From: Rhodocyclaceae bacterium
Lineage (GTDB): Bacteria > Pseudomonadota > Gammaproteobacteria > Burkholderiales > Rhodocyclaceae
DNA length: 64,000 nucleotides
Reading direction: 5' to 3'
Assembly (NCBI GenBank): GCA_030682175.1
Contig: JAUXOM010000031.1
Span: 1,112 to 65,111, forward strand
Shown: one piece after another, positions 3-60,424 of the stretch
How the letters are laid out: each line of letters begins with the position of its first letter
How positions within the stretch are numbered: the stretch's first letter is position 1
Program-made: the position numbers and the translations under genes
Notes under the pieces: model-generated
What the model was told of the DNA's origin: nothing
The model's input: the letters and a program-made list of their open reading frames with translations, nothing else
The model's database searches: none

Positions 3-275
3 GGCTATGCCGACGGCTATCCGCGCCACGCGCCGACCGGCACGCCCGTGCTGGTGGATGGCATCCGCACGCGCACCCTCGGCCGCGTGTCGATGGACAA
101 GCTGTGTGTCGACCTGACGGAACTCCCGGCAAAAGTCGGCGTTGGCGGGACGGCGACCCTGTGGGGCAGGGCAGGGGAAACCGTGCTGCCCGCCGACGAA
201 GTCGCCACGGCTGCCGGCACCATCAGCTATGAACTGTTCTGCGCTCTCGCAGCACGAGTTAGTGTGCTAGATTGA
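3..275 (+). CDS. alr: Alanine racemase, C-terminal part (5' end outside window)
   Basis: Frame from base 3 reads [16 protein letters not shown]...[12 protein letters not shown]...TISYELFC, typical Alr C-terminal motifs. Confidence 0.9.
131..155 (+). repeat. 25-bp core motif copy inside alr
   Basis: AAAAGTCGGCGTTGGCGGGACGGCG, one mismatch to consensus, read as KVGVGGTA. Confidence 0.8.
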
Positions 276-299
276 CTTGCATACTTATGGAGACTACGC

Positions 300-524
300 A
301 TGAACCCTCTTGACCGAATTACTTTCGACGCCGCGCAATGCGGCGGTCGGCCGTGCATTCGGCATCTGCGCATCCGGGTCAAGGATGTGCTGGATTTGCT
401 TGCCGCAGGCGCGTCACACGAAGAAATCCTGACTGATTATCCTTACCTCGAGCCAGAGGATATTTCGGCGGCGCTGGCTTATGCGGCAGCCCAGGTTGAT
501 CACCTCATATTGAGAGCTGCCTGA
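300..524 (+). CDS. DUF433 family protein (putative antitoxin)
   Basis: RITFDAAQCGGRPCIRHLRIRVKDVLDLLAAGASHEEILTDYPYLEPEDI matches the DUF433 pattern; GGAG upstream. Confidence 0.85.
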   Translation: MNPLDRITFDAAQCGGRPCIRHLRIRVKDVLDLLAAGASHEEILTDYPYLEPEDISAALAYAAAQVDHLILRAA

Positions 525-526
525 GC

Positions 527-661
527 TTGAAGTTCATCGTCGATGCCCAGTTGCCACCCGCGCTGGCGCGCAAGCAGCCGTTGCTTGAGAAGTTCGATAC
601 CTTGCTCCCCGCTATTCTTGCCGCGCTCGACCGTGGCGAAACCCTGATCGAGCTAATCTGA
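527..661 (+). pseudogene. DUF5615 PIN-like toxin with in-frame internal deletion (44 aa)
   Basis: TTG start; reads MKFIVDAQLPPALAR-KQPLLEKFDTLLPAILAALDRGETLIELI; family-like N- and C-termini with the central core missing; directly follows DUF433. Confidence 0.7.
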
Positions 662-662
662 C

Positions 663-2051
663 ATGGTCAAGGCCAAATCGATTTATTCCTGCACCGAATG
701 CGGCGCGAGCGCGCCGAAATGGCAGGGGCAGTGTCCCGGTTGTGGAGAATGGAACACGCTGGTGGAAGCCGTCGCCGAAGCGGCGACGCCGGCGGCCAAG
801 CGCTTCGGCGCCAGCTTTGCCCCATTGGTTGGCGGGGCGGCCAGCAGCAAACCGCAGGACCTGGCAAGCATCCGCCCGCGCGATGAGCCCAGGCTCCCGA
901 CCGGCGTCGAGGAGTTCGACCGCGTGCTGGGCGGCGGCCTGGTCGCCGGCGGCGTGGTGCTGATCGGTGGCGATCCGGGCATCGGCAAATCGACACTGTT
1001 GCTGCAAGCACTGGCGCGCCTCGCCGAAGCCGGCCAGCCGGTGCTGTATGTCTCGGGGGAAGAATCCGGCGAACAGATTGCCCTGCGCGCCAATCGGTTG
1101 CAGCTCCCGGCTGCCGGGCTGCGCCTGCTGGCCGAGATCAATCTCGAAAAAATCATCGCCACCTTGCAGGATGAAAAACCGCTGGTCGCCGTGATCGACT
1201 CGATCCAGACGCTCTGGTCGGACGCCCTGCAATCCGCGCCCGGCTCGGTCGCGCAGGTGCGCGAATGCGCGGCGCAATTGACGCGCTTCGCCAAGCAGAC
1301 CGGCGTCTGCATCATCCTCGTCGGCCATGTGACGAAGGAAGGCGCGCTGGCCGGCCCGCGCGTGCTCGAACACATCGTCGATACCGTGCTGTATTTCGAG
1401 GGCGACACGCACTCGAGCTTTCGCCTCGTGCGCGCCGTCAAGAACCGCTTCGGCGCGGTCAATGAACTCGGTGTGTTCGCCATGACCGACCGTGGCCTGA
1501 AGGGCGTTGCCAACCCCTCGGCCCTGTTCCTCTCGCAGCATGCGCAGGACGTCGCGGGCAGTTGCGTGCTGGTCACGCAGGAAGGCACGCGCCCCTTGCT
1601 GGTCGAGATACAGGCGCTGGTCGATGCCGCCATGTCGGGCAATCCGCGCCGCCTGACGGTCGGCCTCGACCCGCAGCGGCTGGCGATGCTGCTGGCCGTG
1701 CTGCACCGGCATGCCGGCGTGACCTGCGGCGATCAGGATGTCTTCGTCAATGCCGTCGGCGGCGTGCGCATCCAGGAACCGGCGGCCGACCTGGCCGTGC
1801 TGCTGGCCATCGTCTCGTCCTTGCGCAACAAGCCGCTGCCCGGCAAATGGGTGGCCTTCGGCGAAGTCGGCCTGGCCGGCGAAATCCGTCCCGCCCCGCG
1901 CGGCCAGGAACGCCTGAAAGAAGCCGCCAAGCTGGGCTTCACCCATGCCCTGATCCCCAAGGCCAATGCCCCGCGGCAGGCGATCAAGGGCATGACGGTG
2001 ATCGCCCTGGATCGGGTCGAGCAGGCGATGGATCAGTTGCGGAACAGGTAA
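663..2051 (+). CDS. radA: DNA repair protein RadA/Sms
   Basis: CxxC-CxxC zinc finger, GGDPGIGKST Walker A, KNRFG motif, Lon-like C-terminus. Confidence 0.97.
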   Translation: MVKAKSIYSCTECGASAPKWQGQCPGCGEWNTLVEAVAEAATPAAKRFGASFAPLVGGAASSKPQDLASIRPRDEPRLPTGVEEFDRVLGGGLVAGGVVLIGGDPGIGKSTLLLQALARLAEAGQPVLYVSGEESGEQIALRANRLQLPAAGLRLLAEINLEKIIATLQDEKPLVAVIDSIQTLWSDALQSAPGSVAQVRECAAQLTRFAKQTGVCIILVGHVTKEGALAGPRVLEHIVDTVLYFEGDTHSSFRLVRAVKNRFGAVNELGVFAMTDRGLKGVANPSALFLSQHAQDVAGSCVLVTQEGTRPLLVEIQALVDAAMSGNPRRLTVGLDPQRLAMLLAVLHRHAGVTCGDQDVFVNAVGGVRIQEPAADLAVLLAIVSSLRNKPLPGKWVAFGEVGLAGEIRPAPRGQERLKEAAKLGFTHALIPKANAPRQAIKGMTVIALDRVEQAMDQLRNR

Positions 2052-2056
2052 TTAAA

Positions 2057-2268: not shown

Positions 2269-2269
2269 C

Positions 2270-2294
2270 CGCCGTCCCGCCAGCGTCGACTTTT
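2270..2294 (-). repeat. 25-bp core motif copy
   Basis: Reverse complement AAAAGTCGACGCTGGCGGGACGGCG. Confidence 0.85.
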
Positions 2295-2319
2295 GCTTTA
2301 GTGTGAAACACCCACTACC

Positions 2320-2340
2320 CGTCACACCGGCGCAGGCCGG
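2320..2340 (+). repeat. REP-like hairpin arm
   Basis: CGTCACACCGGCGCAGGCCGG; inverted counterpart at 4854-4876. Confidence 0.55.
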
Positions 2341-2448
2341 AGAGGCGGCGATCTGGTCATCGGTAATGCCGGCCAAGGCTGCACCATCATTGTGTCTGGG
2401 GCGGGTGAATTGTCGTTCTATCGCCTTCGTCACGCCTTTAATAGTGCC

Positions 2449-2502
2449 TTGACATATTAACGACTACCGTAGTAGTCTTTAACTGTCATCCGCATTGTTA
2501 AA
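2449..2502 (+). promoter_or_regulatory. Sigma70-type promoter with two overlapping inverted repeats upstream of fic
   Basis: TTGACA 2449-2454, TAGTCT 2473-2478; palindromes GACTAC-N4-GTAGTC (2462-2477) and TTTAAC...GTTAAA (2478-2502). Confidence 0.55.
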
Positions 2503-2508
2503 GGCATC

Positions 2509-3669
2509 GTGAAGCGCTCCGACCTCAGCCCTGCGCACCAAAAGCGACTCGTTCCGGTTCCGGACCGGTCGGGGGCATTCGCGCTCATTCCGCCACCGAC
2601 GCCGGCCATGGTGCCGCTGACCGGAATCGAGCATGAGGTGCTCAAGGCACACGAAGCGCTGGGTCTGGTTCGACAACTGGTCACCGACTTGCCGAACCCG
2701 TATCTGATTGCACGCACGCTGGATCGGCGTGAAGCGGTGAAGAGCAGCCAGATCGAGGGTACCCATGCCGAGGTCGATGAGTTGTTCGAGTACGAGGTGA
2801 CCGGAGAAGAGGAAGGCTTGCCTGCCGATGTTCGGGTCACGCTCAACTACGTCGAGGCAATGGATGTCGGTCTCAAGGCGGTTCGACTGGCCGGCACCCC
2901 GGCCATCACGAAATCGCTGATCCAGGATCTGCACCGTGTCCTGATGGAAGGCGTGAAGGACTACCGCGATGCCCCGGGCGACCTGCGCACCATCCAGAAC
3001 TGGATCGGCAGCGGCAACATCCACGACGCCAGCTTGGTGCCACCGCCGCCCAATCAGGTGAGCCCCTGCCTCGACGACCTGATCGGCTTGTTGCAATATC
3101 AAGCAGACGGCGTCGCCGTTGTTTCAATCGTCGTGCGGCTGGCGATCGCACATGCCCAGTTCGAAGCCATTCACCCCTTCCGTGACGGCAACGGCCGTGT
3201 CGGCCGCTTGCTGCTGCCGATCATGCTGGCGGCAGAGGACTATCCGCTGGTCTATCTGGCGGGGTATCTCAAGTCCAACCAGCGCAGTTACTACGACACC
3301 CTGCTGCGCGCACAGACGCGGGGCGAATGGCAAGCGTGGGTACGCTTCCTGGCACGCGGGATCGTCGAGTCCTGCAATGAGGCGGCCGAGATGACGCGCC
3401 GCCTGCTTGCACTGCGTGACGAGTGGCGTCAGCGGGTATCGTCATTGCGAGGCGATGCCACGGGTCGCAAGCTGGTCGAGATCCTGATCGGCGCGCCGAT
3501 CGTGACGGCCAATTCGGTCAAGGAGCAACTCGGCGTGAGTTTCCCGGCAGCAAATACGGCCATAGCGCAACTGGTCGACCTGGGCATCCTGCAGGCCTCC
3601 GAGCGGCGGCGTAACCGGATATTTGTCGCTGATCAGGTGGTGGCACTATTGCGGCGAGGTATTGAATGA
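2509..3669 (+). CDS. Fic family protein with probable C-terminal HTH
   Basis: HPFRDGNGRVGR Fic motif, EAVKSSQIEGT N-terminal motif, C-terminal winged-HTH-like segment; GTG start. Confidence 0.92.
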   Translation: MKRSDLSPAHQKRLVPVPDRSGAFALIPPPTPAMVPLTGIEHEVLKAHEALGLVRQLVTDLPNPYLIARTLDRREAVKSSQIEGTHAEVDELFEYEVTGEEEGLPADVRVTLNYVEAMDVGLKAVRLAGTPAITKSLIQDLHRVLMEGVKDYRDAPGDLRTIQNWIGSGNIHDASLVPPPPNQVSPCLDDLIGLLQYQADGVAVVSIVVRLAIAHAQFEAIHPFRDGNGRVGRLLLPIMLAAEDYPLVYLAGYLKSNQRSYYDTLLRAQTRGEWQAWVRFLARGIVESCNEAAEMTRRLLALRDEWRQRVSSLRGDATGRKLVEILIGAPIVTANSVKEQLGVSFPAANTAIAQLVDLGILQASERRRNRIFVADQVVALLRRGIE

Positions 3670-3876
3670 GCATTTCGAAGACTCCCCCAGTTCTACTTCG
3701 TGACTTCGCGAGAATTTCTCGGAGCCGGTGAATCTTTCGCCCGTATGACTGGGTAGTCATGCGAAGGTGGTTGCCGCCGCCGTGCGGGGCGCAATATGTT
3801 TTTCGCATCGTTTATCCCGCTATTGAACGTTGATTTGTCGATCCCGGAGCAATTCGCTTTCTCAAGCCATCATTCC

Positions 3877-3924
3877 GGGGCAAGAACGTCAGCCCGGAAT
3901 GATTTGATCCGGGGCGGAATTCAG
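3877..3924 (+). repeat. 48-bp direct repeat, copy 1 (REP-like)
   Basis: 43/48 identical to 4788-4835 by manual alignment. Confidence 0.85.
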
Positions 3925-3950
3925 CACAAACAGGGTAAGACCTCGGTTTT

Positions 3951-3973
3951 GCCGTCCCGCCAGCGCCAAACTT
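3951..3973 (-). repeat. Degenerate core motif copy
   Basis: Reverse complement AAGTTTGGCGCTGGCGGGACGGC, inside an ACCTCGGTTT...AAACCGAGGT inverted repeat. Confidence 0.7.
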
Positions 3974-4105
3974 CGGACAGGGAAACCGAGGTGACCCATT
4001 TTTATGACAACATGAGTTCTTGCAAGACTGAATCGACACTCGGTAATCAGCAAATCAGGTAGCATGAACCCCGCCCGTTGGAGGACGAAAAACTCAGGGG
4101 ATCTC

Positions 4106-4495
4106 ATGCAATACACACCACTACATTGGACGTCTGATTACGAGACGGGGATCGAGGAAATCGACCTCCAGCACCACTACTTCATGACCCTAATCAACCG
4201 TATCGAGGATGAGATTCAGCAATCGACGGACCTCGCTTACCACAAGCGCTTGCTGGATGAGCTCTGCAAGTACGCTTCATTTCATTTCATCAGCGAGGAA
4301 AACATCATGCATAAGCTCGGCTACCCGGAGAGGCAGCAACACTATCTGTTGCACCGGAACCTGCTCGACAAGCTCTCCTGGGCCCTCGTGCAACACTCGG
4401 AGGAGAAGTTCATCGGGTTCCTGCACGACTGGTTCTTGCACCACACCGTGACCGAAGACAAAAAGGTCGGCGTATTCGCCCGGACGGTGAACTGA
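4106..4495 (+). CDS. Bacteriohemerythrin
   Basis: W..DYETGIEEIDLQH, HFISEE, YP..QH...H, DWFLHH..TED iron-ligand pattern; GGGGA RBS. Confidence 0.9.
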   Translation: MQYTPLHWTSDYETGIEEIDLQHHYFMTLINRIEDEIQQSTDLAYHKRLLDELCKYASFHFISEENIMHKLGYPERQQHYLLHRNLLDKLSWALVQHSEEKFIGFLHDWFLHHTVTEDKKVGVFARTVN

Positions 4496-4699
4496 CCGGC
4501 ATACAGTCGCGCGCCATAGCGAACAGACCGGTACCTGCCCCTGCCGAGCCCCCACAGGTTTTCTGTGAAATGCGTGCCCCTTTAAATCTTTTACTTTCCA
4601 GCACCCAGATCGACACCACCTGCATCCGCCTCGACTTCACGCAAGTCGTTGCACTGCTGGCAAGTCGCCATGCCTCCGACGCCAAGGCGGCCTCAACAG

Positions 4700-4723
4700 A
4701 AAGTCGGCGCTGGCGGGACGGCG
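4700..4723 (+). repeat. Core motif copy
   Basis: AAAGTCGGCGCTGGCGGGACGGCG, perfect match. Confidence 0.9.
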
Positions 4724-4787
4724 TCAAAGATGATAAGGAGGCAGCGAATGACGGGCGGTGGAGGTTGGTGGCGTGACTGAAGCAGCT

Positions 4788-4876
4788 GGGGCAAGAATGT
4801 CAGCCCGGAATGATTAAATACGGGGCGGAATCCAGGAAAATCAACAACCTGGACACCGGTTTGTGCCGGTGTGACG
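4788..4876 (+). repeat. 48-bp direct repeat copy 2 followed by REP-like right arm
   Basis: Repeat of 3877-3924, then CCAGG...CCTGG and CACCGG-TTTGTG-CCGGTG-TGACG hairpins. Confidence 0.75.
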
Positions 4877-4910
4877 AGCAATCAGCGCTCCTTGGGTATG
4901 ATCTTCACCC

Positions 4911-18432: not shown

Positions 18433-18505
18433 AAAAGTCGGCGTGACCGCAGGGAATCCCCTTTTCGGGACTGGCGGGATGAAATGCCCCGCATGGGGTA
18501 CGGCG
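18433..18505 (+). repeat. Core motif carrying both a 27-nt and a 21-nt hairpin insert
   Basis: AAAAGTCGGCG[TGACCGCAGGGAATCCCCTTTTCGGGA]CTGGCGGGA[TGAAATGCCCCGCATGGGGTA]CGGCG. Confidence 0.85.
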
Positions 18506-20241: not shown

Positions 20242-22707
20242 ATGAAAAGCCAGACCCACTGGTGGCATGGCCTGCTTGCGCGCAGCCTGATGGCGGTAGT
20301 GGGCATCGCCTTGTTGATGGGGGGCGCCTCCAGCGTATTGGTGAGCCGGGTCGCCGGAGAGCGCGCCTACGAGCAGGCCATGGTCAAACTGGACGAATTG
20401 CTCGACACCGTCGAGAGCACGGCCACCATTGCCGCTTTTGTTGGCGACGAACAGTTGGCGAAAGAGCTTGCGCAAGGCCTGATGCGCAATAGCGAGGTGT
20501 TGCGGGTAACAATACGCGGCAATGAACATGGTAATGAGCGCGAGTTGGCGCGCGCGGAACGGGCACCACCAAGCCCCGCTGTGAACGAAGGAAGTCCCCG
20601 CGGGACTGGCGGGATGAAGGATCCCGCAACGGGTGCGGAGAGCAACAGGACACTGATTCCATCCGTCAAACGCCAGTTGTATTCACCCTTTACCCCGCAC
20701 GAAGCCGTCGGCGAGATCCGTCTCGATGCGGATCAGGATGTCATCGATGCGCGCATGGCGAACGACGCCCGCTTCATCAGCCTGCTGCTGGCGGGTCAAT
20801 TGGCCCTGGTGATTGCCGCAGCGGCAGCCGCAATGCTGTTTCTGGTGGTGCGGCCAATCAAGGCAACCTCCGACCGCCTGCATCGCCTTGATGCCGCCAA
20901 GGGGGAGCGTCTTGCCGTGCCGGAAAGCCATGCACGCTCGGAACTGGGCCGCCTGGTCGAGGACATCAATAATCTCACGGCGCGACTGGTGGCAACCATC
21001 GGCATCGAGAGCGACCTGCTCCGTCAGCAGGTGATCGACCAGCGCAAATATCAGGATCTTTTCGAAAATGCGGCCTTTGGCATCTTTGTCGCCGATCATG
21101 CCGGACGTCTCGAGTCATTCAACCTTGCCTATGCATCATTGACCTGGCTGTCCCGGCGCAAGGAAGCCGTTGGCCGCTGGTTGACCGAAGCCGGTTGGGC
21201 AAACCCCGAACAACTGCTGGCCCTGTTGCGCAACAGCCTGAATGCGGCCGATAACCAGGCGTTGGAGGAAGACTTCCTGCTCATCGGCCAGCGGAAGGAT
21301 GAGCGCTGGCTGCATGTCGCCGTGACACCGCTGGGCAACGGCAGCGTGCAGGGCATCGTTACCGATGTGACGCAGCGCCGCAGCGAGGAAATCTCGGCCC
21401 GCCAGCTTGCCGTAACCGACGCCTTGACCGGGTTTGCCAATCGCTCCGGCCTGCAAAATGCCCTGTCCGGCATCGGTCCGGACACGCCGCCATTTGCCCT
21501 GGTGATGATCGATCTGGATGGCTTCAGGCGCATCAATGACGCCATGGGGTTTCAGGTGGGCGACCAGTTGCTGATGATGGTGGCGGCACGCATCCGCAAG
21601 CTGCTCGAAGACGGGGATCGGGCGGCGCGGGTTGGTGGCGATGAGTTTGCGCTGGTGCTCGCCGGTGAGCGCGGCAGCGCCGCGATCGATCTACGGGTTG
21701 GCCAACTGCTGCAGTTGATCGGGCAAGCTTATGACGTGAATATATCCGGCGGTCGCGAGGAGATCGACATTTCGGCAAGCGCCGGCATCGCCTTTTTCCC
21801 GAGCGACGGTGCCGATCTGCACGAACTCCTGCGCAGCACCGAACTCGCATTGAACAGCGTCCAGGCCAGCGGTGGGCGCAAATACTGTTATTTTGACCTT
21901 GCCCAGCAGACCGCCGTCGAGCATCGTCGCCGGCTGGAGGACGACCTGCGTCACGCGCTGGATGGCGGAGAGCTGCATCTGGTCTTCCAGCCGGTCGTCG
22001 ATCTCGCCAGCGGCCAACCGGTGGGCGCCGAAGCCTTGCTGCGCTGGTCGCATCCGGTGCGCGGCCTGGTTTCACCGGAAGTCTTCATCCCGCTTGCCGA
22101 GGATCTCGGTCTGATCGGCGAGATCGGCCTGATGGTACTTGACGAGGCCTGCCGGCAGGTGGCCGCCTGGCGCAAGGCCGGGCTCGATTTGTCTGTATCG
22201 GTCAACGTCTCGGTGCGGCAGATTCCGGAAGACCTGCCACCCTTGACCGTGGCCACCATGCTCAAGCAGCATGGTTTGCCGCCCACGGCGGTTGCCATCG
22301 AGATCACCGAGGGGGTGCTGATGAACAACGTTGCGGTGGCGCAAAGCTGGATCGAATACCTGCGTGCCGACGGCATGCGGGTTTATCTGGATGACTTCGG
22401 TACCGGGTATTCATCATTGTCATATCTGAAGCGCTTTGCGCTGGACACCGTGAAGATCGACAAGTCTTTCGTTCGCGACATGAGCGAGGACAACAATGAC
22501 CGCGCCCTGGTCGATGCGATTGTCACGATGGCGCGAAGTCTTGGCCTGCAGGTCATCGCCGAGGGCATCGAAACCCAGGCGCAGCTCGACATACTGCGCC
22601 AGATGGGTTGCGGCTACGGGCAAGGTTACTTCTTCTCGAAACCCGTGAAAGCCGATGAGTTCGTCACGGCCATTGCGAAAATCAGCGCCGTAGCAGCGCG
22701 CGGCTGA
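20242..22707 (+). CDS. Membrane sensor with HAMP-PAS-GGDEF-EAL domains
   Basis: Two TMs, HAMP-like ELGRL, GGDEF, EALLRW, DDFGTGYSSLSYL. Confidence 0.92.
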   Translation: MKSQTHWWHGLLARSLMAVVGIALLMGGASSVLVSRVAGERAYEQAMVKLDELLDTVESTATIAAFVGDEQLAKELAQGLMRNSEVLRVTIRGNEHGNERELARAERAPPSPAVNEGSPRGTGGMKDPATGAESNRTLIPSVKRQLYSPFTPHEAVGEIRLDADQDVIDARMANDARFISLLLAGQLALVIAAAAAAMLFLVVRPIKATSDRLHRLDAAKGERLAVPESHARSELGRLVEDINNLTARLVATIGIESDLLRQQVIDQRKYQDLFENAAFGIFVADHAGRLESFNLAYASLTWLSRRKEAVGRWLTEAGWANPEQLLALLRNSLNAADNQALEEDFLLIGQRKDERWLHVAVTPLGNGSVQGIVTDVTQRRSEEISARQLAVTDALTGFANRSGLQNALSGIGPDTPPFALVMIDLDGFRRINDAMGFQVGDQLLMMVAARIRKLLEDGDRAARVGGDEFALVLAGERGSAAIDLRVGQLLQLIGQAYDVNISGGREEIDISASAGIAFFPSDGADLHELLRSTELALNSVQASGGRKYCYFDLAQQTAVEHRRRLEDDLRHALDGGELHLVFQPVVDLASGQPVGAEALLRWSHPVRGLVSPEVFIPLAEDLGLIGEIGLMVLDEACRQVAAWRKAGLDLSVSVNVSVRQIPEDLPPLTVATMLKQHGLPPTAVAIEITEGVLMNNVAVAQSWIEYLRADGMRVYLDDFGTGYSSLSYLKRFALDTVKIDKSFVRDMSEDNNDRALVDAIVTMARSLGLQVIAEGIETQAQLDILRQMGCGYGQGYFFSKPVKADEFVTAIAKISAVAARG
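20571..20640 (+). repeat. Degenerate core motif with 24-nt and 21-nt inserts inside the EAL gene
   Basis: [TGAACGAAGGAAGTCCCCGCGGGA]CTGGCGGGA[TGAAGGATCCCGCAACGGGTG]CGGAG; left arm poorly conserved. Confidence 0.7.
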
Positions 22708-24875: not shown

Positions 24876-26856
<1,981 letters not shown>

Positions 26857-27753
26857 TCAGGCGGCGCTGGTTTCCGCCGTCCAGCCAGTCCCACGGGGAT
26901 TTCCTGCGGTCACGCCGACTTTCTCGATGGCCAAGGTATCGGCCAGCCAAGGCAGCGTTTCACGCATCTCCTTGGCGAGGGTCCACGGCGGATTGACGAC
27001 GAAGACGCCGCTGCCGTGCATGCCGAGGCCTTCGGCGCCGGGGTTCTGCACGGTCAGCGTGACATTGAGCCAGTCCGGCGCGAGCTTCTTCAGCCGGCCG
27101 GCCAGTAGGATGCTTTCATTCCGCTGCAGCAGCGGATACCAGATCAGGTAAGTGCCGGTGGCGAAACGCGCCAGGCCTTCCTTCACGGCCGTGACCACGC
27201 GGGCATAGTCGCGCTTGTCTTCATAGGCCGGGTCGATGACGATCAGGCCGCGGCGCGGCGGTGGCGGCAGCAGGGTTTGCAGTCCGGTGAAGCCGTCCTC
27301 CTGGCGAATCGCCACACGCTTGCTGGCGTGCGGGTCGACAAACGCGACGGCCTCGCCCAGCAGGCGCACATCGGCCGGATGCAGTTCAAACAAGCGTAGC
27401 TGATCCCGCGGACGCAACAGGCGCAGCGTCAGCAGGGGCGAACCGGGGTAGCGGCGCAATTGGCCATCCGGGTTGTCGTGGCGCACGGCGGCAACGTAAG
27501 CGGCGAGCAGCGGCGGCAGGTCGGCGCGTGCCCATAGCCGGCCAATGCCATCCGCGTATTCGGGGCTGTGTTGCGCGGCATGGGACTTCGCCCGGCCGGC
27601 GTCGAACCGATAGCCGCCGGCGCCCGCATGGGTGTCGATCACCCAGTAAGGCTTGTCCTTCTGGTTGAAATAGGCCAGCGTCGCCAGCAAGACGGTGTGC
27701 TTGAGGACATCGGCGTGGTTGCCGGCATGGAAGACGTGGCGGTAGCTGAGCAT
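26857..27753 (-). CDS. rlmJ: 23S rRNA m6A2030 methyltransferase RlmJ
   Basis: MLSYRHVFHAGNHADVLKH, DTHAGAG, YPGSP, IDPAYE. Confidence 0.95.
   Translation of the reverse strand: MLSYRHVFHAGNHADVLKHTVLLATLAYFNQKDKPYWVIDTHAGAGGYRFDAGRAKSHAAQHSPEYADGIGRLWARADLPPLLAAYVAAVRHDNPDGQLRRYPGSPLLTLRLLRPRDQLRLFELHPADVRLLGEAVAFVDPHASKRVAIRQEDGFTGLQTLLPPPPRRGLIVIDPAYEDKRDYARVVTAVKEGLARFATGTYLIWYPLLQRNESILLAGRLKKLAPDWLNVTLTVQNPGAEGLGMHGSGVFVVNPPWTLAKEMRETLPWLADTLAIEKVGVTAGNPRGTGWTAETSAA
26875..26922 (-). repeat. Core motif with 24-nt insert inside rlmJ 3' end
   Basis: Reverse complement AAAGTCGGCG[TGACCGCAGGAAATCCCCGTGGGA]CTGGCTGGACGGCG. Confidence 0.88.
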
Positions 27754-28673: not shown

Positions 28674-28925
28674 ATGTTGGATACTGCCGGATCTGCTACC
28701 AAGAAGGGCCGTCTGTCCTTGTCGATCAATCAGAGTCTGCTTGATCGGCTCGAACCCTTTAAGCAGCGGATCAATCTATCAGCACAAGCCGAGCAATTCT
28801 TTGCCAGCATGCTTGAAGAATTGGAGAATCGCGCATGGGCGGAGCGTAACGCAACCGCCTTGGTAGCTCATGGGCGCGACATCGCCGCCACCGGGCTAGC
28901 CGGCGAAGAGTTCGAGCGAGTTTAG
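28674..28925 (+). CDS. ccdA: CcdA-like antitoxin
   Basis: RHH-like LSLSINQSLL, INLS, W..RN..A pattern; CAGGAGG RBS; upstream of ccdB-like gene. Confidence 0.7.
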   Translation: MLDTAGSATKKGRLSLSINQSLLDRLEPFKQRINLSAQAEQFFASMLEELENRAWAERNATALVAHGRDIAATGLAGEEFERV

Positions 28926-28928
28926 CGC

Positions 28929-29240
28929 TTGGCTCAATATCACATTTACCACAATCCGGGCCTGAAGCAGGCGGCGATTCCGTTTCTGCTTGCCGTGCAG
29001 AATGACCATATCAGCAGCCGGACAGGCGCTTGCGTGGTCATTCCTTTGCGTGCGAATGCGCAACCGGTCGAGATCATGGCGCCGCTGGTCGAGGTACCCG
29101 GAATCGGGGCATTTGTGTTGTCCGCCGACGAGATATTTGCCATAGATGTTTCGCGGCTGAAACAGCCGGTGGGGATATTAAGCCTGCCAGACCGGGCAAA
29201 GATCAAGCCCGCCATCGATAAGGTGATTGGCGAGTATTAG
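28929..29240 (+). CDS. ccdB: CcdB-like toxin
   Basis: MAQY.IY.NP, PFLLAVQND, VVIPL, I..AID pattern; TTG start. Confidence 0.78.
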   Translation: MAQYHIYHNPGLKQAAIPFLLAVQNDHISSRTGACVVIPLRANAQPVEIMAPLVEVPGIGAFVLSADEIFAIDVSRLKQPVGILSLPDRAKIKPAIDKVIGEY

Positions 29241-29243
29241 AAG

Positions 29244-29390
29244 GCCCTCCCCTCCCGGCCTCCCCGCATGGGGAGGTGACTGTTGCTCGCTGCGCTCGAA
29301 TATTACGGGGCGCGTCAATATTGATTCTGGTACGGATTGCGGCTGGCGCCGCGTGCCGCCTTTCCTTGGGGCGGCCCGGCGGAAAGGCTA
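29244..29390 (+). repeat. Structured intergenic element, copy D
   Basis: Conserved blocks as in copy A; stem GCCTTTC/GAAAGGC. Confidence 0.85.
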
Positions 29391-29395
29391 CATAG

Positions 29396-30295
29396 CTAAC
29401 GAAAGGCCAAATCCTCGCGCCGCAGCATGAACAGCTTGCCCTCACCGCTCGGGGTGTCGAGCCAGGTGAGCGGCAGTTCCGGGAAGGCGGCTTCGACGAT
29501 TTCCTTGTTGTGACCGACTTCCACGGCCAGCAGGCCGCCGGGCTTGAGGTGGCTTGCGGCAGCGGCCAGAATGCGCCGCACGATGTCGAGGCCGTCGGCG
29601 CCGGCGGCCAGTGCATTCTCGGGTTCGTGGCGGTATTCGGGCGGCAGATCGCGCATGGCCTGCGCGGTGACATAGGGCGGGTTGCTCAGGATGAAGTTGT
29701 AGCGGCGGCGGCCGAGCCCAGCGAACAGGTCGCCCTGTACCAGCTTGACGCGTTTTTGCAGCGCGTAATCGCTGACGTTGCGTTTGGCGACCGCCAGCGC
29801 TGCATCCGAAATATCGGCCGCATCGATTTTCGCGTTGGGGAAGGCATGCGCCATCAGGATGGCGAGGCAGCCCGAGCCGGTGCATAGATCGAGGGCACTG
29901 TCGATGCTGTAGGGATCTTCGATCCAGGGCGCGAAGCCGTCGACCAGCAGCTCGGCGAAATACGAGCGGGGAATCAGCACGCGCTCATCGACATAAAAGC
30001 GCAGGCCGGCCTGCCAGGCTTCGTGCGTCAGATAGGCGGCGGGGACGCGGCGGGCGATGCGCTGCTGCAGCAGTTCAAGTACCGCGCGGCGTTCCTGGCG
30101 CGCGAGGCGGGCATCCAGATACGGGTCGAGCTGGTCGGGCGGCAGGTGCAAGGCGGCAAGCACCAGCCAGGCCGCCTCGTCGTGGGCGTTGTCGCAGCCG
30201 TGGCCGAAAAACAGCTTGGCTTCATGGAAGCGGCTGGTGCCCCAGCGCAGCCAGTCGCGCACGGTGATGAGGTCGTCGAGCAGGGAATCGGTCAT
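29396..30295 (-). CDS. prmB: Ribosomal protein L3 glutamine methyltransferase
   Basis: VRDWLRW, VDERVLIPRS, LDLCTGSGCLAI, SNPPYV. Confidence 0.95.
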   Translation of the reverse strand: MTDSLLDDLITVRDWLRWGTSRFHEAKLFFGHGCDNAHDEAAWLVLAALHLPPDQLDPYLDARLARQERRAVLELLQQRIARRVPAAYLTHEAWQAGLRFYVDERVLIPRSYFAELLVDGFAPWIEDPYSIDSALDLCTGSGCLAILMAHAFPNAKIDAADISDAALAVAKRNVSDYALQKRVKLVQGDLFAGLGRRRYNFILSNPPYVTAQAMRDLPPEYRHEPENALAAGADGLDIVRRILAAAASHLKPGGLLAVEVGHNKEIVEAAFPELPLTWLDTPSGEGKLFMLRREDLAFR

Positions 30296-30299
30296 GGTC

Positions 30300-30323
30300 A
30301 AAGTCGGCGCTGGCGGAACGGCG
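30300..30323 (+). repeat. Core motif filling the dapE-prmB gap
   Basis: AAAGTCGGCGCTGGCGGAACGGCG occupies 24 of the 29 intergenic bases. Confidence 0.88.
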
Positions 30324-35408: not shown

Positions 35409-35475
35409 CGCCGTACCCCATGTGGGGCATTTCATACCCGCTGCGGGGCACTTTGTCCCGCCAGCGCCGACTTTT
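35409..35475 (-). repeat. Core motif with two tandem 21-nt inserts
   Basis: Reverse complement AAAAGTCGGCGCTGGCGGGA[CAAAGTGCCCCGCAGCGGGTA][TGAAATGCCCCACATGGGGTA]CGGCG. Confidence 0.85.
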
Positions 35476-40170: not shown

Positions 40171-40935
40171 GTGATCCGCTTCGCCTCGCTCGGCAGCGGC
40201 AGCAAGGGCAACGCGCTGCTCGTCGAGTCCGGGCGTACCCGCGTGCTGGTCGATTGCGGTTTCGGCCAGCGCGAAATGGCGCGCCGGCTGGAACGACTGG
40301 GTATTGAGCCGGCATCCGTCGATGCCGTCCTGGTCACCCACGAACATGCCGATCATGTCGGCGGCGTGGCCCGTTGCGCCGCCCGCTTTGGCTGGACGGT
40401 GCATGCCAGCCATGGCACGACGGCAGCCGCACGGCAGCTTGCCGACCTTGCCGTGCGGCGCTTCGACAGCCATGCCAGCTTCCCCATCGGCGACATCGAG
40501 ATACACCCCTATCCCGTGCCGCACGACGCGCGCGAGCCGACGCAGTTTGTATTTTCCGACGGAGCAGCACGTCTCGGTCTGCTCACCGACGCCGGCATGA
40601 TCACCCCCCATATCGTCGCCATGCTGGCCAAGTGTGCGGCGCTGGTGCTCGAAGCCAACCATGACGCCGCAATGCTTGCCAATGGCCGCTATCCCCCGCC
40701 ACTGAAGCGGCGCATCGCCGGCGGCTTCGGCCATCTCGACAATGCCGCCGCGGCCGGCCTGTTGCGCACGCTGGGTGGCGGGCGGCTGCAGCATGTGGTG
40801 GCCGCCCATCTTTCCGCGGAAAACAATACGCCTGACCTGGCGCGAACCGCCTTCGCCACTGCGCTGGGCTGCAGCACCGAATGGATCGGCGTGGCCGACC
40901 AGGCCACCGGCTGCGGCTGGCGCGAACTGCGGTAA
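40171..40935 (+). CDS. MBL-fold metallo-hydrolase (YycJ-like)
   Basis: SLGSGSKGN, THEHADH, PHDAREP, EANHD, AHLSAENN. Confidence 0.92.
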   Translation: MIRFASLGSGSKGNALLVESGRTRVLVDCGFGQREMARRLERLGIEPASVDAVLVTHEHADHVGGVARCAARFGWTVHASHGTTAAARQLADLAVRRFDSHASFPIGDIEIHPYPVPHDAREPTQFVFSDGAARLGLLTDAGMITPHIVAMLAKCAALVLEANHDAAMLANGRYPPPLKRRIAGGFGHLDNAAAAGLLRTLGGGRLQHVVAAHLSAENNTPDLARTAFATALGCSTEWIGVADQATGCGWRELR

Positions 40936-40958
40936 AAGTCGGAGCTGGCGGGACGGCG
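40934..40958 (+). repeat. Core motif overlapping the stop codon
   Basis: AAAAGTCGGAGCTGGCGGGACGGCG. Confidence 0.85.
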
Positions 40959-41916: not shown

Positions 41917-41939
41917 AAAAGTCGGCGCTGGCTTTACGG
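41917..41939 (+). repeat. Core motif copy, 3' part degenerate
   Basis: AAAAGTCGGCGCTGGCTTTACGG. Confidence 0.8.
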
Positions 41940-42020
41940 TTTAACGGACTGCTGTCGTATGGCGGACGGCGTTCGGATCTGGCGTTTATAATCGCGCCCC
42001 TTTCTCGTCCGTTTGTCCCC

Positions 42021-43325
42021 ATGAATCCAGTCACCATCGAATCGCTTGACTACGAAGGGCATGGCGTCGCCCATGTCGAGGGCAAGGCCATCTTCATCGA
42101 TGGCGCGCTGCCAGGCGAACTCGTTACCTTTACTTCTTACCGCCGCAAGCCGAAGTTCGAGAGTGCGGGCGTCGATGCTGTTCTCAAGACGTCCAGTCAG
42201 AGGGTTACGCCGGCCTGCCCGCATTTTGGCGTGTGCGGCGGCTGCAGCATGCAGCATCTGGATGCGACGGCACAGGTGGCCGCCAAGCAGCGGGTGCTGG
42301 AAGATGCCTTCTGGCATCTGTCGCGATTGAGGCCCGCGACGATCCTGTCGCCGATCATCGGTCCCGCCTGGGGCTATCGTCGGCGTGCGCGGCTGACGGT
42401 GCGCAAGGTCGAGAAAAAGGGTTGCGTGCTGGTCGGTTTCCATGAAAAGCGGCGCAGTTTTGTGGCTGACATGGATTCCTGCGCCGTCCTGCCAGCGCCG
42501 ATTTCTTCCCTGTTGCCGAAAATGCGCGAACTGATTGCGGCCTTGTCGATCCCCGACCGCGTGCCACAAATCGAGGTGGCCGCCGGCGACATGCCGACGG
42601 TGCTGGTGCTGCGCATTCTGGAAGCAATCTCAAATGACGACGCGGTGCTGCTGCGCGAATTTGCCGACCGGCATGGTGTGACGATCTACCTGCAAACCAG
42701 CGGGCCGGAAAGCGCCACATTGTTCCATCCGCCCGATGCGCCGATGCCGGCCTATCACCTGCCCGAGTTCGGCGTCACCCTGCGTTTTCGGCCGACCGAT
42801 TTCACGCAGGTCAATCATGATGTGAATCGGGTGCTGGTGCGGCGGGCGCTGGGGCTGCTGGATATCCAGCCGGACGACCGGGTTGCCGACATGTTCTGCG
42901 GCCTCGGTAACTTCACCCTGCCGCTGGCGCGCTGGGGTGCCCGGGTGGTGGGTGTCGAGGGGAGTGCGCCTTTGCTGGAGCGGGCGAAGGAGAATGCGGT
43001 GTTCAATGGTCTGGCCGACCGCATCGAATACCACGTGGCCAACCTGTTCAAGGTGACGCCGGAAAGCCTGGCGGCCTGGGGCAGCTTCGACAAGATGCTG
43101 ATCGATCCGCCGCGCGACGGGGCAATGGAACTCATCAAGTCGCTGGGCGGCCCAGGTGAGGCTGCACCTTCACGGATCGTCTATGTCTCGTGCAGTCCCG
43201 CAACACTGGCACGCGATGCCGGCGTGCTGGTGCATGAAAAGGGCTACCGGCTGGTTGCGGCGGGGGTTGCCAACATGTTCCCGCATACCTCGCACGTCGA
43301 ATCGATCGCGCTGTTCGCGCGGTAA
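42021..43325 (+). CDS. rlmD: 23S rRNA m5U1939 methyltransferase
   Basis: TRAM domain, [43 protein letters not shown]. Confidence 0.95.
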
Positions 43326-44944: not shown

Positions 44945-44987
44945 CGCCGTACCCCATTCGGGGCATTTCATCCTGGCAGCGCCGATT
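44945..44987 (-). repeat. Degenerate core motif with 21-nt insert
   Basis: Reverse complement AATCGGCGCTGCCAGGA[TGAAATGCCCCGAATGGGGTA]CGGCG. Confidence 0.8.
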
Positions 44988-44998
44988 CTTGCCGTTGC

Positions 44999-48568: not shown

Positions 48569-48660
48569 CGCCGTACCCCATGTTGGCGGCGCACCGGCTG
48601 CGCCGTACCCCATGCGGGGCATTTCATCCCACCAGCGCCGTCCCGCCAGCGCCGACTTTT
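48569..48660 (-). repeat. Core motif plus duplicated half-core with 21-nt insert and a truncated insert
   Basis: Reverse complement AAAAGTCGGCGCTGGCGGGACGGCG-CTGGTGGGA[TGAAATGCCCCGCATGGGGTA]CGGCG. Confidence 0.85.
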
Positions 48661-51889: not shown

Positions 51890-51905
51890 GGCTGGCAGGA
51901 ACGAA

Positions 51906-53727: not shown

Positions 53728-53794
53728 AAAAGCCGGCGCTGGCGATAGGTTCACGTGACACGCCAGCTGTAAAGTCGGCGCTGGCGAGACGGCG
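53728..53794 (+). repeat. Two core motif copies in rpsB-tsf gap
   Basis: AAAAGCCGGCGCTGGCGA (53728) and AAAGTCGGCGCTGGCGAGACGGCG (53771-53794). Confidence 0.8.
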
Positions 53795-54751: not shown

Positions 54752-54762
54752 GCGTTTCAGCC

Positions 54763-55488: not shown

Positions 55489-55497
55489 GAGTTTTTC

Positions 55498-56058: not shown

Positions 56059-56082
56059 GCCATCTGTTCAGCCACGCCAACG

Positions 56083-56877
56083 ATGGCGGATTACAACAGT
56101 TCGACACTCACCATCCCGGAGTCTCGGGATGTGCCGCGTCATGTGGCGATGATCATGGATGGCAATGGCCGCTGGGCGAAGAAGCGTTTTTTGCCCCGCG
56201 TGGCCGGTCACCAGCAGGGGGTCGAGACGGTCCGGCAGGTCGTCAAGACCTGTATCGAGCATGGCATCGAATATCTGACGCTATTTGCCTTCAGTTCGGA
56301 AAACTGGCGCCGCCCGGCCGAGGAAGTCGGGTTTCTCATGAACCTGTTTGTCATGGCGCTCCAGCGCGAGGTCGGCCGTTTGCATAAGAACGGTGTGCGT
56401 TTGCGGGTGATTGGCGACCTGTCTGCCTTCGAACCGCGACTGATTGAGCTGATTCGCCGTGGCGAGAACCTTACGGCGGGCAATGACAAGCTGGTCCTGA
56501 CGATTGCCGCCAATTACGGTGGCCGCTGGGACCTGATGCAGGCGTTCAATGGCCTGGTTCTGGCGAATCCTGAAAAAGCCGGGGCATACACCGAGGCCGA
56601 TCTCGAGCCTTTCCTGGCGATGAGTTATGCCCCGGAACCCGATTTGTTCATTCGCACTGGTGGCGAGCAGCGCATCAGCAACTTTCTGCTCTGGCAACTG
56701 GCCTATTGCGAGCTGTTTTTTACCGACAAGTTCTGGCCGGATTTCGATGCGAACACACTGGATGCCGCCATTCAGAGCTATCGGCGGCGCGAGAGGCGCT
56801 TTGGCCGTACCAGCGAACAACTGCTCGACAAGAAAACAGTGCAGTCGACATTAAGTACCGCGGAGTCAAATGCTTAG
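56083..56877 (+). CDS. uppS: Undecaprenyl diphosphate synthase
   Basis: [34 protein letters not shown]. Confidence 0.97.
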
Positions 56878-57670
56878 GGCGCGGGTGATTACCGCGCTGT
56901 TTCTGGCCGCCGGTTTTCTTGCCGTATTGTTTTTTCTGCCCGAGTCCCTGGTCGGAATAGTGTTTGCCATCATTGCCGCATTGGCTGCCTGGGAATGGGC
57001 CGGTTTGATGAAGCCGGGCAAGCCGGGCGCAGCGTTTCGCCTCCTGTATGCCGGTTTAGTGCTCGGTCTGTGCGGCGCGCTCTGGGCCATGCCGTATGAC
57101 TATTCGACCTTGCCCGTATTAATGTGGTCGGTGTCCGCCCTGTTTTGGCTGTTCATCGTGCCAGTCTGGCTGATGCGTGGCTGGCGGCCCGGTTGGGCCG
57201 GATATGTTGTTGGCCTGATTCTGCTGGTACCCGCCTGGGCAGCGCTGGTGGCCTTGTATGCGCATGGCCCGCTGGTGCTCCTGGCGGTCATGGCGCTGGT
57301 CTGGGTCGCCGACATTGCAGCGTACTTTACCGGTCGGGCTTTCGGACGGCACAAACTGGCGCCCGCCATCAGTCCGGGAAAAACCTGGGAGGGCGTGGCC
57401 GGGGCCGTTGTCGGCGTAGTGCTGGTTGGCCTGCTCCTCAGTAAGCTTCTGCCGCTGGCTCATGGCCTGGGCTGGGTGCCGCTGGCCGGTTTCCTGCTGC
57501 TCTTTACGGCATTCAGCATCATCGGCGACCTGTTTGAATCGCTGATCAAGCGCCAGGCCAACATGAAGGACAGCAGTCAGATGCTGCCAGGCCATGGTGG
57601 CATACTGGACCGCATCGACAGTCAGATGTCCACCCTGCCGCTGGCGGCTTTGACGCTGCATTGGATATAG
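56870..57670 (+). CDS. cdsA: Phosphatidate cytidylyltransferase
   Basis: [33 protein letters not shown]. Confidence 0.96.
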
Positions 57671-57676
57671 AGTAAT

Positions 57677-57866
57677 TGGCCCCCCACGCTCGTAAATTCG
57701 ACTCGCTGCCCCCCACAGGGGGGCGCATGCCTCCTTGGGGCGGCCCGGCGGAGGCATGGGTGGCCCCCCACGCTCGCAAATTCGACTCGCTGCCCCCCAT
57801 GAAATCACCCGCAGCGGTGACGGGTGAACTTATGCCTCCTTGGGACGGCCCGGCGGAGGCATGGTG
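57677..57866 (+). repeat. Two tandem hairpin elements (family H); second carries a 21-nt module and overlaps the dxr start
   Basis: GGCCCCCCACGCTCG.AAATTCGACTCGCTGCCCCCCA...ATGCCTC-CTTGGG(G/A)CGGCCCGGCG-GAGGCAT twice. Confidence 0.88.
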
Positions 57867-59051
57867 ACCCGCCAGAAACTGACGGTGCTGGGCGCCACGG
57901 GTTCGATCGGTGTCAGTACGCTGGATGTGGTGGCACGCCATCCCGACCGCTACGAGGTGATTGCCCTGACGGGCAACAGTCGTGTCGAGGTGCTGCTTGA
58001 GCAATGTCTGCAACACCGGCCGCGTTATGCGGTGGTGGGACACGCAGATGCTGTGGCCGGACTCACCGAACGTCTGCGCAGTGCCGGGCTGAGCACCGCG
58101 GTGCTGGCCGGGCCGGCTGCGCTGGAGCAGGTGGCGGCATTACCCGAAGTCGATATGGTGATGGCGGCGATTGTCGGTGCGGCTGGACTGCAGCCGACCT
58201 TGGCCGCGGTGCGCCAGGGCAAGCGCGTGCTGCTGGCCAACAAGGAAGTGCTGGTAATGGCCGGAGCCTTGTTCATGGCCGAAGTGCGCAAATATGGCGC
58301 CACGCTGTTGCCCATCGACAGCGAGCACAACGCGATATTCCAATCGCTGCCGGCTGGCTATGCTGGAGAACCAGCTGGCGCCGGGGTGAGCCATATCCTG
58401 CTGACGGCTTCCGGTGGCCCGTTCCTCGGCACGCCCCTTGAGCGCTTGCGGAATGTGACGCCTGCGGAGGCCTGCGCCCATCCCAACTGGACGATGGGGC
58501 GGAAAATTTCCGTCGATTCGGCCACCCTGATGAACAAGGGGCTGGAGGTCATCGAGGCGCACTGGCTGTTCAATCTTCCTTCCGAGCAGATCGAGGTGGT
58601 GATCCACCCGCAAAGCGTCATCCATTCGCTGGTGCAATATGTCGATGGCTCGGTGCTGGCTGAGCTCGGCAACCCCGACATGCGCACCCCGATCGCCTAT
58701 GCAATGGCCTGGCCGGAGCGCATTGCGGCGGGAGTGGCGCCGCTGGATCTGCCGGCGATTGCCAAACTCAGCTTCGAACGACCCGATCTGCTGCGTTTCC
58801 CTTGCCTGGCGCTGGCATTTCGCGCCTTGCGCGACGGGGCGAATGCGGCGACGGTGCTGAATGCCGCCAACGAGGTGGCCGTGGCGGCATTCCTCGCCGG
58901 GCGTTTGCCATTCCTCGCCATTGCCGAAATCATTGCCGCCACGCTGGATGCCGTGCCGGTCAGGCCGATGGCCGATCTGCCGGCGATTCTGGCGGAGGAC
59001 GCCAATGCCCGTGCCGTCGCTACGGAACTGCTGGCCAGGAGGTCCGCATGA
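57861..59051 (+). CDS. dxr: 1-deoxy-D-xylulose-5-phosphate reductoisomerase
   Basis: [40 protein letters not shown]. Confidence 0.97.
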
Positions 59052-60424
59052 CCGCCCAGGGTTTCCTCTGGGTTCTGGGTGCTTTCCTGCTGGCGCTGGG
59101 CCTGCTGATCGTTGTCCATGAGCTGGGGCATTACCTGGCGGCACGGATCTGCAACGTCAAGGTGCTGCGTTTTTCCGTGGGTTTCGGCCGGCCGCTCTGG
59201 ACGCGGCGCTTCGGCCGCGATCAAACAGAGTGGTCGGTGGCGGTTTTCCCCCTGGGTGGTTACGTCAAGATGCTCGATGAGCGCGAGGCTGATGTGCCCG
59301 AGCACGAACTCGGGCGTGCCTTCAACCGTCAGAGTGTGGGGCGACGCAGTTTTATTGTGGTGGCGGGGCCGGTGGCCAACCTGTTGCTGGCGGTTCTCTT
59401 GTATTGGTTCCTGTTCATGAGCGGGGTGCAAGAGCCGCGTCCGGTGCTTGCCGCTCCCCCGGCCGGCACGCTGGCGGCAGAAGCAAAAGTCGGCGCTGGC
59501 GAGACGGCGCGCGCGGTGTCGGGTACGCCGGTGGAGACCTGGACCGAGTTGCGCTGGGAATTGCTGCGACGGGTTCTGGATCGTGAAACCGTAGTGCTCG
59601 AGACCATTGATGCCCGCGGCAATATCGCTGTGTACCGCCTTGCGGTCGAGCGACTTGACAGCGCCGCGCTTGACACTGATGTGATGCAGGTCCTCGGCCT
59701 GTACCTGATGCGGCCGGATTTGCCCGCAATACTTGGCGAAGTGCAGCCAGGTTCGCCGGCCGCTGCCGCCGGTTTGCAGTCAGCAGACTTGATTCAGGGA
59801 ATCAACGGTAGTCCCGTTGCGTCCTGGCACGAACTGGTTCAGGGTATCCGTGCCGGGGCGGCAGCGGAACTTCTTCTGGACGTCAAGCGTGGCGAACAGC
59901 TTTTACAGGTGCGGGTCGTTCCGGAAATGGTCGAAGAGCGTGGTGGCAAGCGGGTTCCCCGTATCGGTATCGCCGTGCGTGACGATCCCGAGCTGCGCAA
60001 AAATGCGCTGGTGACTGTGCGTTACGGCGTGGGTGATTCGCTGCAGCGCGCCTTGGTGCAAACCTGGGACATCTCGGTGCTGAGTCTGCGCATGATCGGC
60101 CGCATGCTGATCGGCGAACTTTCAGTCAAGAACATCTCCGGGCCGGTGACCATTGCCGACTACGCCGGCCAGTCCGCGCGGATGGGCGCGGACCATTATC
60201 TGCGTTTTCTGGCACTCATCAGCATCAGTCTCGGAGTGCTCAATCTGCTGCCCATACCGGTTCTGGATGGGGGGCACTTGATGTATTATCTTGCCGAAGT
60301 TATCAAGGGTGGACCTCTCTCCGAACGAGTCATGGAAATCGGCCAGCAGATCGGTTTTGCGCTGCTGTTTTTGCTGATGGCCCTGGCGTTCTATAACGAC
60401 ATTATTCGCTTGGTTGCCAACTGA
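59048..60424 (+). CDS. rseP: RIP metalloprotease RseP
   Basis: HELGH, two PDZ domains, [12 protein letters not shown]. Confidence 0.96.
59485..59509 (+). repeat. Core motif inside rseP PDZ1
   Basis: AAAAGTCGGCGCTGGCGAGACGGCG, one mismatch, read as KVGAGETA. Confidence 0.85.

Follow-up and report, generated by a model that had tools for sequence, protein, structure and literature searches.

A 24-nt word iterated hundreds of times in a Rhodocyclaceae genome is maintained at the DNA level and resembles a DNA-uptake tag

We analyze a 24-nt word, AAAGTCGGCGCTGGCGGGACGGCG, that recurs throughout a 64,000-nucleotide stretch of contig JAUXOM010000031.1 from a Rhodocyclaceae bacterium (this whole stretch is hereafter “the window”) and throughout the assembly from which the window comes. 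The word is a highly iterated sequence that is maintained at the DNA level and is constant across its genus and several other genera of the family. Solitary copies arise and persist in place by base substitution, in genes as well as in spacers and on both strands. Judging from the pattern of its copies, we tentatively favor the reading that the word serves as a tag for DNA uptake, and we weigh this reading against several alternatives.

Background

To our knowledge, DNA-uptake tags that act sequence-specifically have been established for two bacterial families only. The DNA uptake sequence (DUS) of the Neisseriaceae, ATGCCGTCTGAA, occurs in several dialects and has ComP as its receptor; the uptake signal sequence (USS) is that of the Pasteurellaceae. 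How such words are born and what reads them are still debated, and a receptor for the USS was only predicted in 2025. Our literature search found no paper on the word described here, nor any on a DNA uptake sequence in the Rhodocyclaceae or in Sulfuritalea.

The word was noticed in a reading of the window from its letters (hereafter, the sequence-only reading), which described an abundant, non-palindromic 25-mer on both strands and proposed that it might be an uptake signal or a target site for a recombinase or tiny mobile element. We use a 24-nt form, which a weakly conserved A precedes at the 5′ end, and report counts for the 25-mer where that form was searched. The source assembly (G000) comprises 3.49 Mb in 153 contigs at 62% G+C, and its genes were called with a crude custom caller (2916 genes, 84% coding). 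Its relatives are metagenome-assembled genomes (MAGs) labelled Methyloversatilis sp., Rhodocyclaceae or Sterolibacteriaceae. For the family survey, we drew 201 genomes from 89 genera of Rhodocyclaceae.

Results

Abundance, boundaries and placement of the word

At up to three mismatches, the 25-mer has 11 matches in the window and none in 100 dinucleotide shuffles. Over the whole assembly, it has 602 matches at up to four mismatches versus 0 in controls, which bears out the claim that the motif is abundant and above background. For the 24-mer, mismatch classes 0 to 6 hold 125, 210, 160, 77, 52, 57 and 62 copies in G000; the corresponding counts for the reversed word are 0, 0, 0, 0, 2, 2 and 23, and neither the reversed nor the shuffled word has any copy in classes 0–3. 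In a logo built from 600 copies with 60-nt flanks, information is confined to the 24 positions and the weak preceding A, with razor-sharp edges, soft positions at 16–18 and flanks that carry zero information. The word is asymmetric, non-palindromic and unstructured (fold z = −0.2), and an Rfam search with it gave no match; a structured RNA or a repetitive extragenic palindromic (REP) element is ruled out on these two grounds. It can be read as AAA followed by three heptamers, GTCGGCG / CTGGCGG / GACGGCG.

Of 572 copies in G000, 334 (58%) fall within genes, 215 fall between them and 23 extend across a gene end. Copies occur in all six reading frames, the commonest reading being K-V-G-A-G-G-T-A (123 copies), and genic copies are sense in 184 cases and antisense in 150. 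Intergenic copies show no bias by spacer type or gene direction, and convergent spacers are not preferred. The use of both strands reported from the window holds for the assembly, with 312 matches of the 25-mer on the plus strand and 290 on the minus strand and no relation between strand and local GC skew (p = 0.33). With orientation thus unlinked to replication, a polar word of the Chi kind or that of the FtsK-orienting polar sequences (KOPS) is ruled out. Spacing is more even than random, with a mean of 5.1 kb and a coefficient of variation of 0.84. Against this mean spacing of about 5 kb, the longest word-free stretches in G000 measure 54 kb (C25:1-54336) and 35 kb (C61:330-35087), and they may be foreign DNA.

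Copies replace sequence of the same length

The clearest view of how a copy comes to be is given by rseP and alr. In an alignment of RseP from 80 species, no row has a gap. All 14 species at ≥ 72% identity carry the word, and no species at ≤ 64% does; at this site, the other 66, more distant Rhodocyclaceae have A-G-F-Q-E-G-E-L-V-R or a similar sequence. In the window copy, where outgroups read AGFQEGELV and no indel is seen, the soft position GAG retains the conserved Glu. The alr copy lies at the same place in four relatives (G024, G015, G021 and G002), and the word-free congener G011 has non-word sequence of the same length there. The frame K-V-G-A/V-G-x-T-A that the sequence-only reading gave for alr, rseP and rlmJ is the one used in the first two (KVGVGGTA in alr, KVGAGETA in rseP).

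The same holds more broadly. The expectation that alignments with relatives lacking the word would show replacement without indels was confirmed for alr, for rseP and for many genes compared with G011: protein alignments could be resolved for 79 genes, and 33 of these have no net gap within three residues of the word. In about 25 of the 79, the word lies within larger insertions specific to G000, which are composite repeats (e.g., encoding GGSELGLRARGAN-KVGAGGTA). Mapping of flanks onto G011 gave orthologous stretches with a modal length of 24 and never of 0, and G011 is often already similar at the orthologous site, as with KVGAGQ or AVPPAP. A copy private to G002 overlies sequence of the same length in four other species, with 12 of 25 bases matching, and at one intergenic site four species form a graded series from seven mismatches to one. 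In G000, 85% of copies have unique flanks and about 15% adjoin other repeated modules. Insertion accompanied by an indel relative to empty sites, as in REP elements, REP-derived hairpins (REPINs), miniature inverted-repeat transposable elements (MITEs) or Rickettsia palindromic elements (RPEs), was found only for the nested modules and composite elements described below. We rejected the word itself as an insertion scar or tiny transposon, given that no solitary copy is associated with a 24-nt indel.

The word is kept at the level of DNA

Within rseP of 15 species, third codon positions at invariant residues have an entropy of 0.18 bits in the word and 0.83 bits elsewhere in the gene, and the word retains the rare codons AAA and GCT. 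The alr copy is shared by species whose DNA is only 77% identical.

Distribution, dialects and a loss

Of 24 congeners, 23 carry the word, at 58–525 copies each when up to two mismatches are allowed. In the family survey, the genera with hundreds of copies were g1, g18, g19, g27, g64, g74 and g101, joined by g96 in a single species of its three, which makes at least seven genera besides that of G000. Dialects exist: copies in G005 end in ...GGCA, and G102 has GTCGACGC. In word-rich genomes of other genera, RseP is 52–62% identical to that of G000 and the rseP site lacks the word; distant genera have the same consensus at sites that are not orthologous. The rich lineages form three groups on an RseP tree: G056/G093/G047/G048/G130, G103 with g1, and G125.

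The word-free genome G011 is reduced (2.3 Mb), has a long branch and is nested within the word-bearing genus g1 on the RseP tree, so that its state is most simply explained as a loss. In 683 kb, it has only six matches when up to six mismatches are allowed, and at that stringency the reversed word matches too; its rseP site still holds 13 of the 24 bases of the word. A loss inside the genus in turn argues for active upkeep of the word elsewhere. Loss of ComEC or DprA was considered as the cause of the empty state and rejected, as both are present in G011.

Small clusters of copies also occur in word-poor genomes. These stretches match the G000 contigs C112, C91, C66 and C129 at 65–84% identity, which is consistent with DNA transferred from word-rich donors; two of these contigs, from reading them by eye, presumably carry metal-efflux and cation-antiporter genes. 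We had considered the clusters as a possible home of the machinery, and dismissed them because they look like transferred DNA. At least 120 IMG/VR contigs contain an exact copy, and no full copy was found on any of the 72,556 plasmids of PLSDB. One IMG/VR contig (L209, IMGVR_UViG_3300009945_000063) holds, at 880–2240, five tandem units of ~316 nt (the last of 385 nt), each with one word copy and without an open frame.

Copies in the window

The window contains 11 bare copies and about seven split or degenerate ones. Every position among the ~18 copies counted in the sequence-only reading proved real; only some of these copies are bare, the rest being split, degenerate or partial, and the count overlooked a copy at 42482 on the minus strand. 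Pfam supports the gene names given there for alr, radA, the Fic gene, the AMP-binding synthetase, rlmJ, the GGDEF-EAL gene, rseP and the PilT/U-type ATPase. The copies are as follows.

131–155, plus: bare word in alr (Ala_racemase_C), reading KVGVGGTA, 1 mismatch
2270–2294, minus: bare word, intergenic, at the left edge of a 2.5-kb window-specific Fic segment
3951–3975, minus: degenerate copy (GAAGTTTGGCGCTGGCGGGACGGCA)
4699–4723, plus: bare word, intergenic, at the right edge of the Fic segment
13254–13278, plus: intergenic bare word without mismatch, retained in G015, G021 and G024 despite diverging flanks
18433–18505, plus: word interrupted by two modules, A (27 nt, after AAAAGTCGGCG) and B (21 nt, after CTGGCGGGA)
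20571–20640, plus: degenerate word in the GGDEF-EAL gene, containing A-like and B-like modules
24961–25009, minus: word with a 24-nt module A, antisense in an AMP-binding (acetoacetyl-CoA synthetase-type) gene
26875–26922, minus: word with a 24-nt module A in the C-terminus of rlmJ
30299–30323, plus: bare word filling the spacer of two co-directional genes
35409–35475, minus: word with two tandem 21-nt B modules (25-mer match at 35451, minus)
40934–40958, plus: bare word, 1 mismatch, at the end of a metallo-beta-lactamase-fold gene and the left edge of a ~1-kb accessory stretch
41917–41941, plus: partial copy, first 16 nt only
42482–42506, minus: 3-mismatch copy, antisense in an RlmD-like methyltransferase gene
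44945–44990, minus: degenerate word with a 21-nt module B
48575–48660 (lower bound approximate), minus: perfect word (match at 48636, minus), then a second unit made up of CTGGTGGGA, module B and CGGCG, and a 30-nt CAGCCGG...GGGG unit
53728–53794, plus: two directly oriented copies 43 nt apart, one degenerate (53728) and one good (53770); G015 retains both
59485–59509, plus: word in rseP, reading AKVGAGETA

Nested modules, composite repeats and cassettes

Some copies are interrupted by small modules at two fixed junctions. At the 18433 site, the word is bare in G015 and G021, holds one insert of 27 nt in G024 and, in the window, carries a second of 21 nt as well, which marks the modules as precise insertions. 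In G000, 492 copies are bare. Module A (24 or 27 nt, TGACCGAAGGAAATCCCCGTGGGA) sits after AAAGTCGGCG in ~60 copies, and module B (TGAAATGCCCCGCAGCGGGTA, 21 nt, at times doubled) follows CTGGCGGGA in ~70. All module lengths, from 21 to 27 nt, are multiples of three, and the entry point of module A is exactly the first heptamer boundary of the word. Module B was seen solely in word-rich genomes: it sits within the word 86 times in G000, 9 in G056, 8 in G125, 7 in G234 and 4 in G093, and not once in the 196 other surveyed genomes, three congeners among them. Modules A and B are thus separate, patchily spread small elements that use the word as a landing site. The proposal of a target site for a tiny mobile element therefore stands in part: 21–27-nt modules do insert into the word, and the word itself is not inserted.

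The word is also part of a few larger composite repeats. Several repeat families adjoin copies in G000: a ~75-nt element of the form ...GGGCCGTCCCAAGCCGAC...GGGGGGCAGCGAGC...GCGGGGGGCCAAC, flanked by duplicated AAAGTCGGCGC; a 30-nt unit, CAGCCGG..CGCCGCCAACATGGGGACGGCG, in tandem; and intergenic hairpins of the form GCCTTGGGGCGGCCCGGCGGCAAGGC. Window examples are at 48575–48635 and 2200–2270.

Larger differences between relatives also touch copies in places. G024, G015 and G021 lack, at the corresponding position, the 2.5-kb segment at 2294–4820 with its Fic/DOC gene (2509–3666); word copies in inverted orientation bound the segment, and an 86%-identical copy of it is on G000 contig C55. The spacer that holds the 30299 word in the window, G024 and G021 contains, in G015, a cassette of ~820 bp (L010, G015:C6 ~28739-29558), which by eye we take to encode a Phd/YefM-like antitoxin and a PIN-domain toxin. 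At the same site, G021 has a 43-nt, head-duplicating insert.

Search for a reader

A PilT/U-type ATPase is encoded in the window, and ComEC and DprA are encoded in the genome. A crude regular-expression scan turned up no small, Ssn-like GIY-YIG protein. A screen for gaps in synteny between G000 and 30% of G011 returned 32 gaps and no convincing reader candidate; read by eye, the gaps hold what we take to be RmuC-, Fic- and HipA-like proteins and transporters. One of these, G000:C25:60422-61760, presumably RmuC-like, is missing at the syntenic place in the part of G011 that was compared.

Discussion

Substitution in place, constancy at the DNA level, strand neutrality, even spacing, clade-wide presence with dialects and loss from one lineage together match the pattern of the DUS and USS; given these facts, the word is neither an insertion scar nor a polar word nor a structured repeat. 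The conditions that the sequence-only reading set as refuting its proposal (rarity elsewhere in the genome, co-orientation with replication, constant association with indels) all turned out in favor of a DUS/USS-like word. Going by this pattern, the word may be a DUS/USS-like tag under uptake-bias drive, a reading that we hold tentatively, at somewhat less than even chance, and rank first because uptake-bias drive is the only known process that yields such a pattern. Some sequence-specific reader would bias the fate of word-bearing DNA: competent cells would preferentially import fragments that carry the word, and homologous recombination in the unique flanks would then spread better-matching alleles. 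The word would be a third kind of DUS/USS-like “self” tag. Like those tags, it is non-palindromic, has hundreds of copies and is equally frequent on both strands; it lies in core genes without indels, at sites where the protein sequence was already compatible; and it is clade-wide with dialects, evenly spaced and traceable in DNA transferred to other taxa.

Several observations weigh against an uptake tag. DUS and USS cores span 9–12 nt, whereas the word is uniform over 24 nt, twice that length: 21 of its positions are ≥ 94% conserved, rather than a core of 9–12 nt with graded flanks as in the DUS and USS. A near-uniform word of 24 nt would be hard to build stepwise under a graded receptor preference. 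The mismatches in copies are 61–75% transitions, which gives imperfect copies the look of perfect ones that have recently decayed, not of sites still improving. Copies are rarely paired or at terminators (only 1.4% of neighbouring copies are less than 200 nt apart), whereas about half of DUS and USS copies lie in terminators, many as inverted pairs (10.1101/2025.10.24.684340). The word is patchy among the genera of one family, with no or few copies in most other surveyed genera, and every word-rich genome seen is an uncultured MAG. Nor do ComP_DUS-family pilins, ComEC or DprA track the word. Pilins of the PF16732 (ComP_DUS) family occur in 185 of the 201 genomes regardless of word count; with the family everywhere, the test of ComP as the reader is uninformative, and G003 carries the word with no PF16732 match. 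ComEC and DprA are present in word-rich and word-poor genomes alike. A ComEA-type protein (HHH_3, TIGR00426) was detected in none of G000, G011, G125, G056 and G048, where the sole match to these models is a long Tex-like open reading frame of ~800 residues (G000:C7:45975-46169, and likewise in the other four).

The failure to detect ComEA speaks for a different explanation, namely that an intracellular protein (for chromosome organization, repair, control of recombination or a “self” mark in defence) binds at the word, and that ordinary selection on the collective function of the copies, rather than uptake bias, keeps them. We regard this as possible, rank it second and give it rather less weight than an uptake tag. 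A 24-bp asymmetric site with three heptamer-like blocks, constrained at the DNA level, evenly spaced and lost in all its copies from one reduced genome (G011), is what such a protein could leave. Known sites of this sort, KOPS and Chi, are short and strand-polarized, unlike the word; selection would have to hold ~40 bits at ~600 sites, including sites in essential proteins at the price of unusual residues; and our searches turned up no candidate gene. A site for recombination or entry, through which a recombinase or word-anchored transformation moves small cassettes and leaves the modules as by-products, would account for the fixed junctions at which modules enter, for the copies that bound the Fic segment at 2294–4820, for the ~820-bp cassette that replaces the 30299 copy in G015 and for the ~7 of 23 larger indels relative to relatives that end within 50 nt of a copy. 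Most indel ends, however, are far from copies, and this enrichment is confounded by intergenic location; 58% of copies are genic, where entry of a cassette would be lethal, the alr and rseP copies are stable across the genus, and the 72,556 plasmids lack a full copy. We consider it unlikely as the main role of the word.

Even less probable, in our view, is a guide- or template-directed system (RNA-guided or linked to a reverse transcriptase) that writes the exact 24 nt into near-cognate sites. Copies born perfect would explain the sharp 24-nt bounds and near-uniform conservation, the dominance of transitions among mismatches, the recurrence of one consensus at non-orthologous sites of distant genera and the prior partial similarity of the sites. 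We know of no system that writes 24 nt in this way, however, a limited search found no candidate locus, master copy or gene, and the gradual series at one site speaks against it. Lowest of all we place the idea that the word itself is a tiny mobile element or an insertion scar, which is largely refuted. It draws on the ~15% of copies that adjoin other repeated modules and on copies inside insertions of 8 to at least 35 residues relative to G011; it is contradicted by the want of a 24-nt indel at any solitary copy, by the unique flanks of 85% of copies and by synonymous sites that have stayed frozen for the whole life of the genus.

Other repeats offer partial parallels. Motifs related to the Ssn family (NTS/dRS3), which are cut by GIY-YIG SsnA nucleases, are likewise hundreds of oriented repeats, and there a dedicated sequence-specific reader modulates transformation, its gene having been found by association (PMC11893778). 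The NTS is a ~30-nt hairpin clustered around genes and ssnA, whereas the word is unstructured and dispersed. REP elements, bacterial interspersed mosaic elements (BIMEs) and REPINs, with their REP-associated tyrosine transposases (RAYTs), and the RPEs share with our composite repeats the mosaic of short modules, and some composite word copies are, like RPEs, inserted in frame in genes; all of these are palindromic and enter by insertion, and REPs are extragenic, none of which is true of the solitary word.

The highly iterated palindrome HIP1 (GCGATCGC) of cyanobacteria was proposed in 2026 to be an uptake signal (PMC13756078), which makes the parallel with it more pertinent. Like the word, HIP1 is a hyper-abundant sequence kept by a force that acts on DNA in genes and spacers, and it is the insertion site, in some lineages only, of hairpin elements of the small dispersed repeat (SDR) kind, of 21–27 nt; SDR5 is inserted inside HIP1 in Nostocaceae (Elhai et al. 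2008, as cited in PMC5861425). HIP1 differs in being an 8-bp palindrome tied to two DNA methyltransferases, where the word has 24 bp and is asymmetric. There is also a bolder reading, which we think doubtful though less so than a recombination site: that the word is not an uptake tag but the product and target of a dedicated intracellular homogenizing system, protein- or guide-directed and patchily spread among Rhodocyclaceae genera. Such a system would write and keep one exact 24-mer at hundreds of unique loci, and the word would host the smallest mobile elements yet seen in Proteobacteria (21–27 nt), as the counterpart of HIP1 with SDR5.

Conclusions

If the uptake reading is true, the Rhodocyclaceae would hold a third, independent and much longer uptake word. 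The natural cases of loss (G011 within its genus, and G125 versus G192 and G244 within another), together with the word-dependent modules, offer a comparative system in which to look for the reader by phylogenetic profiling and to test drive against selection. In horizontally transferred islands, the word marks the donor lineage. Essential proteins such as RseP and Alr tolerate the eight codons that the word imposes on them.

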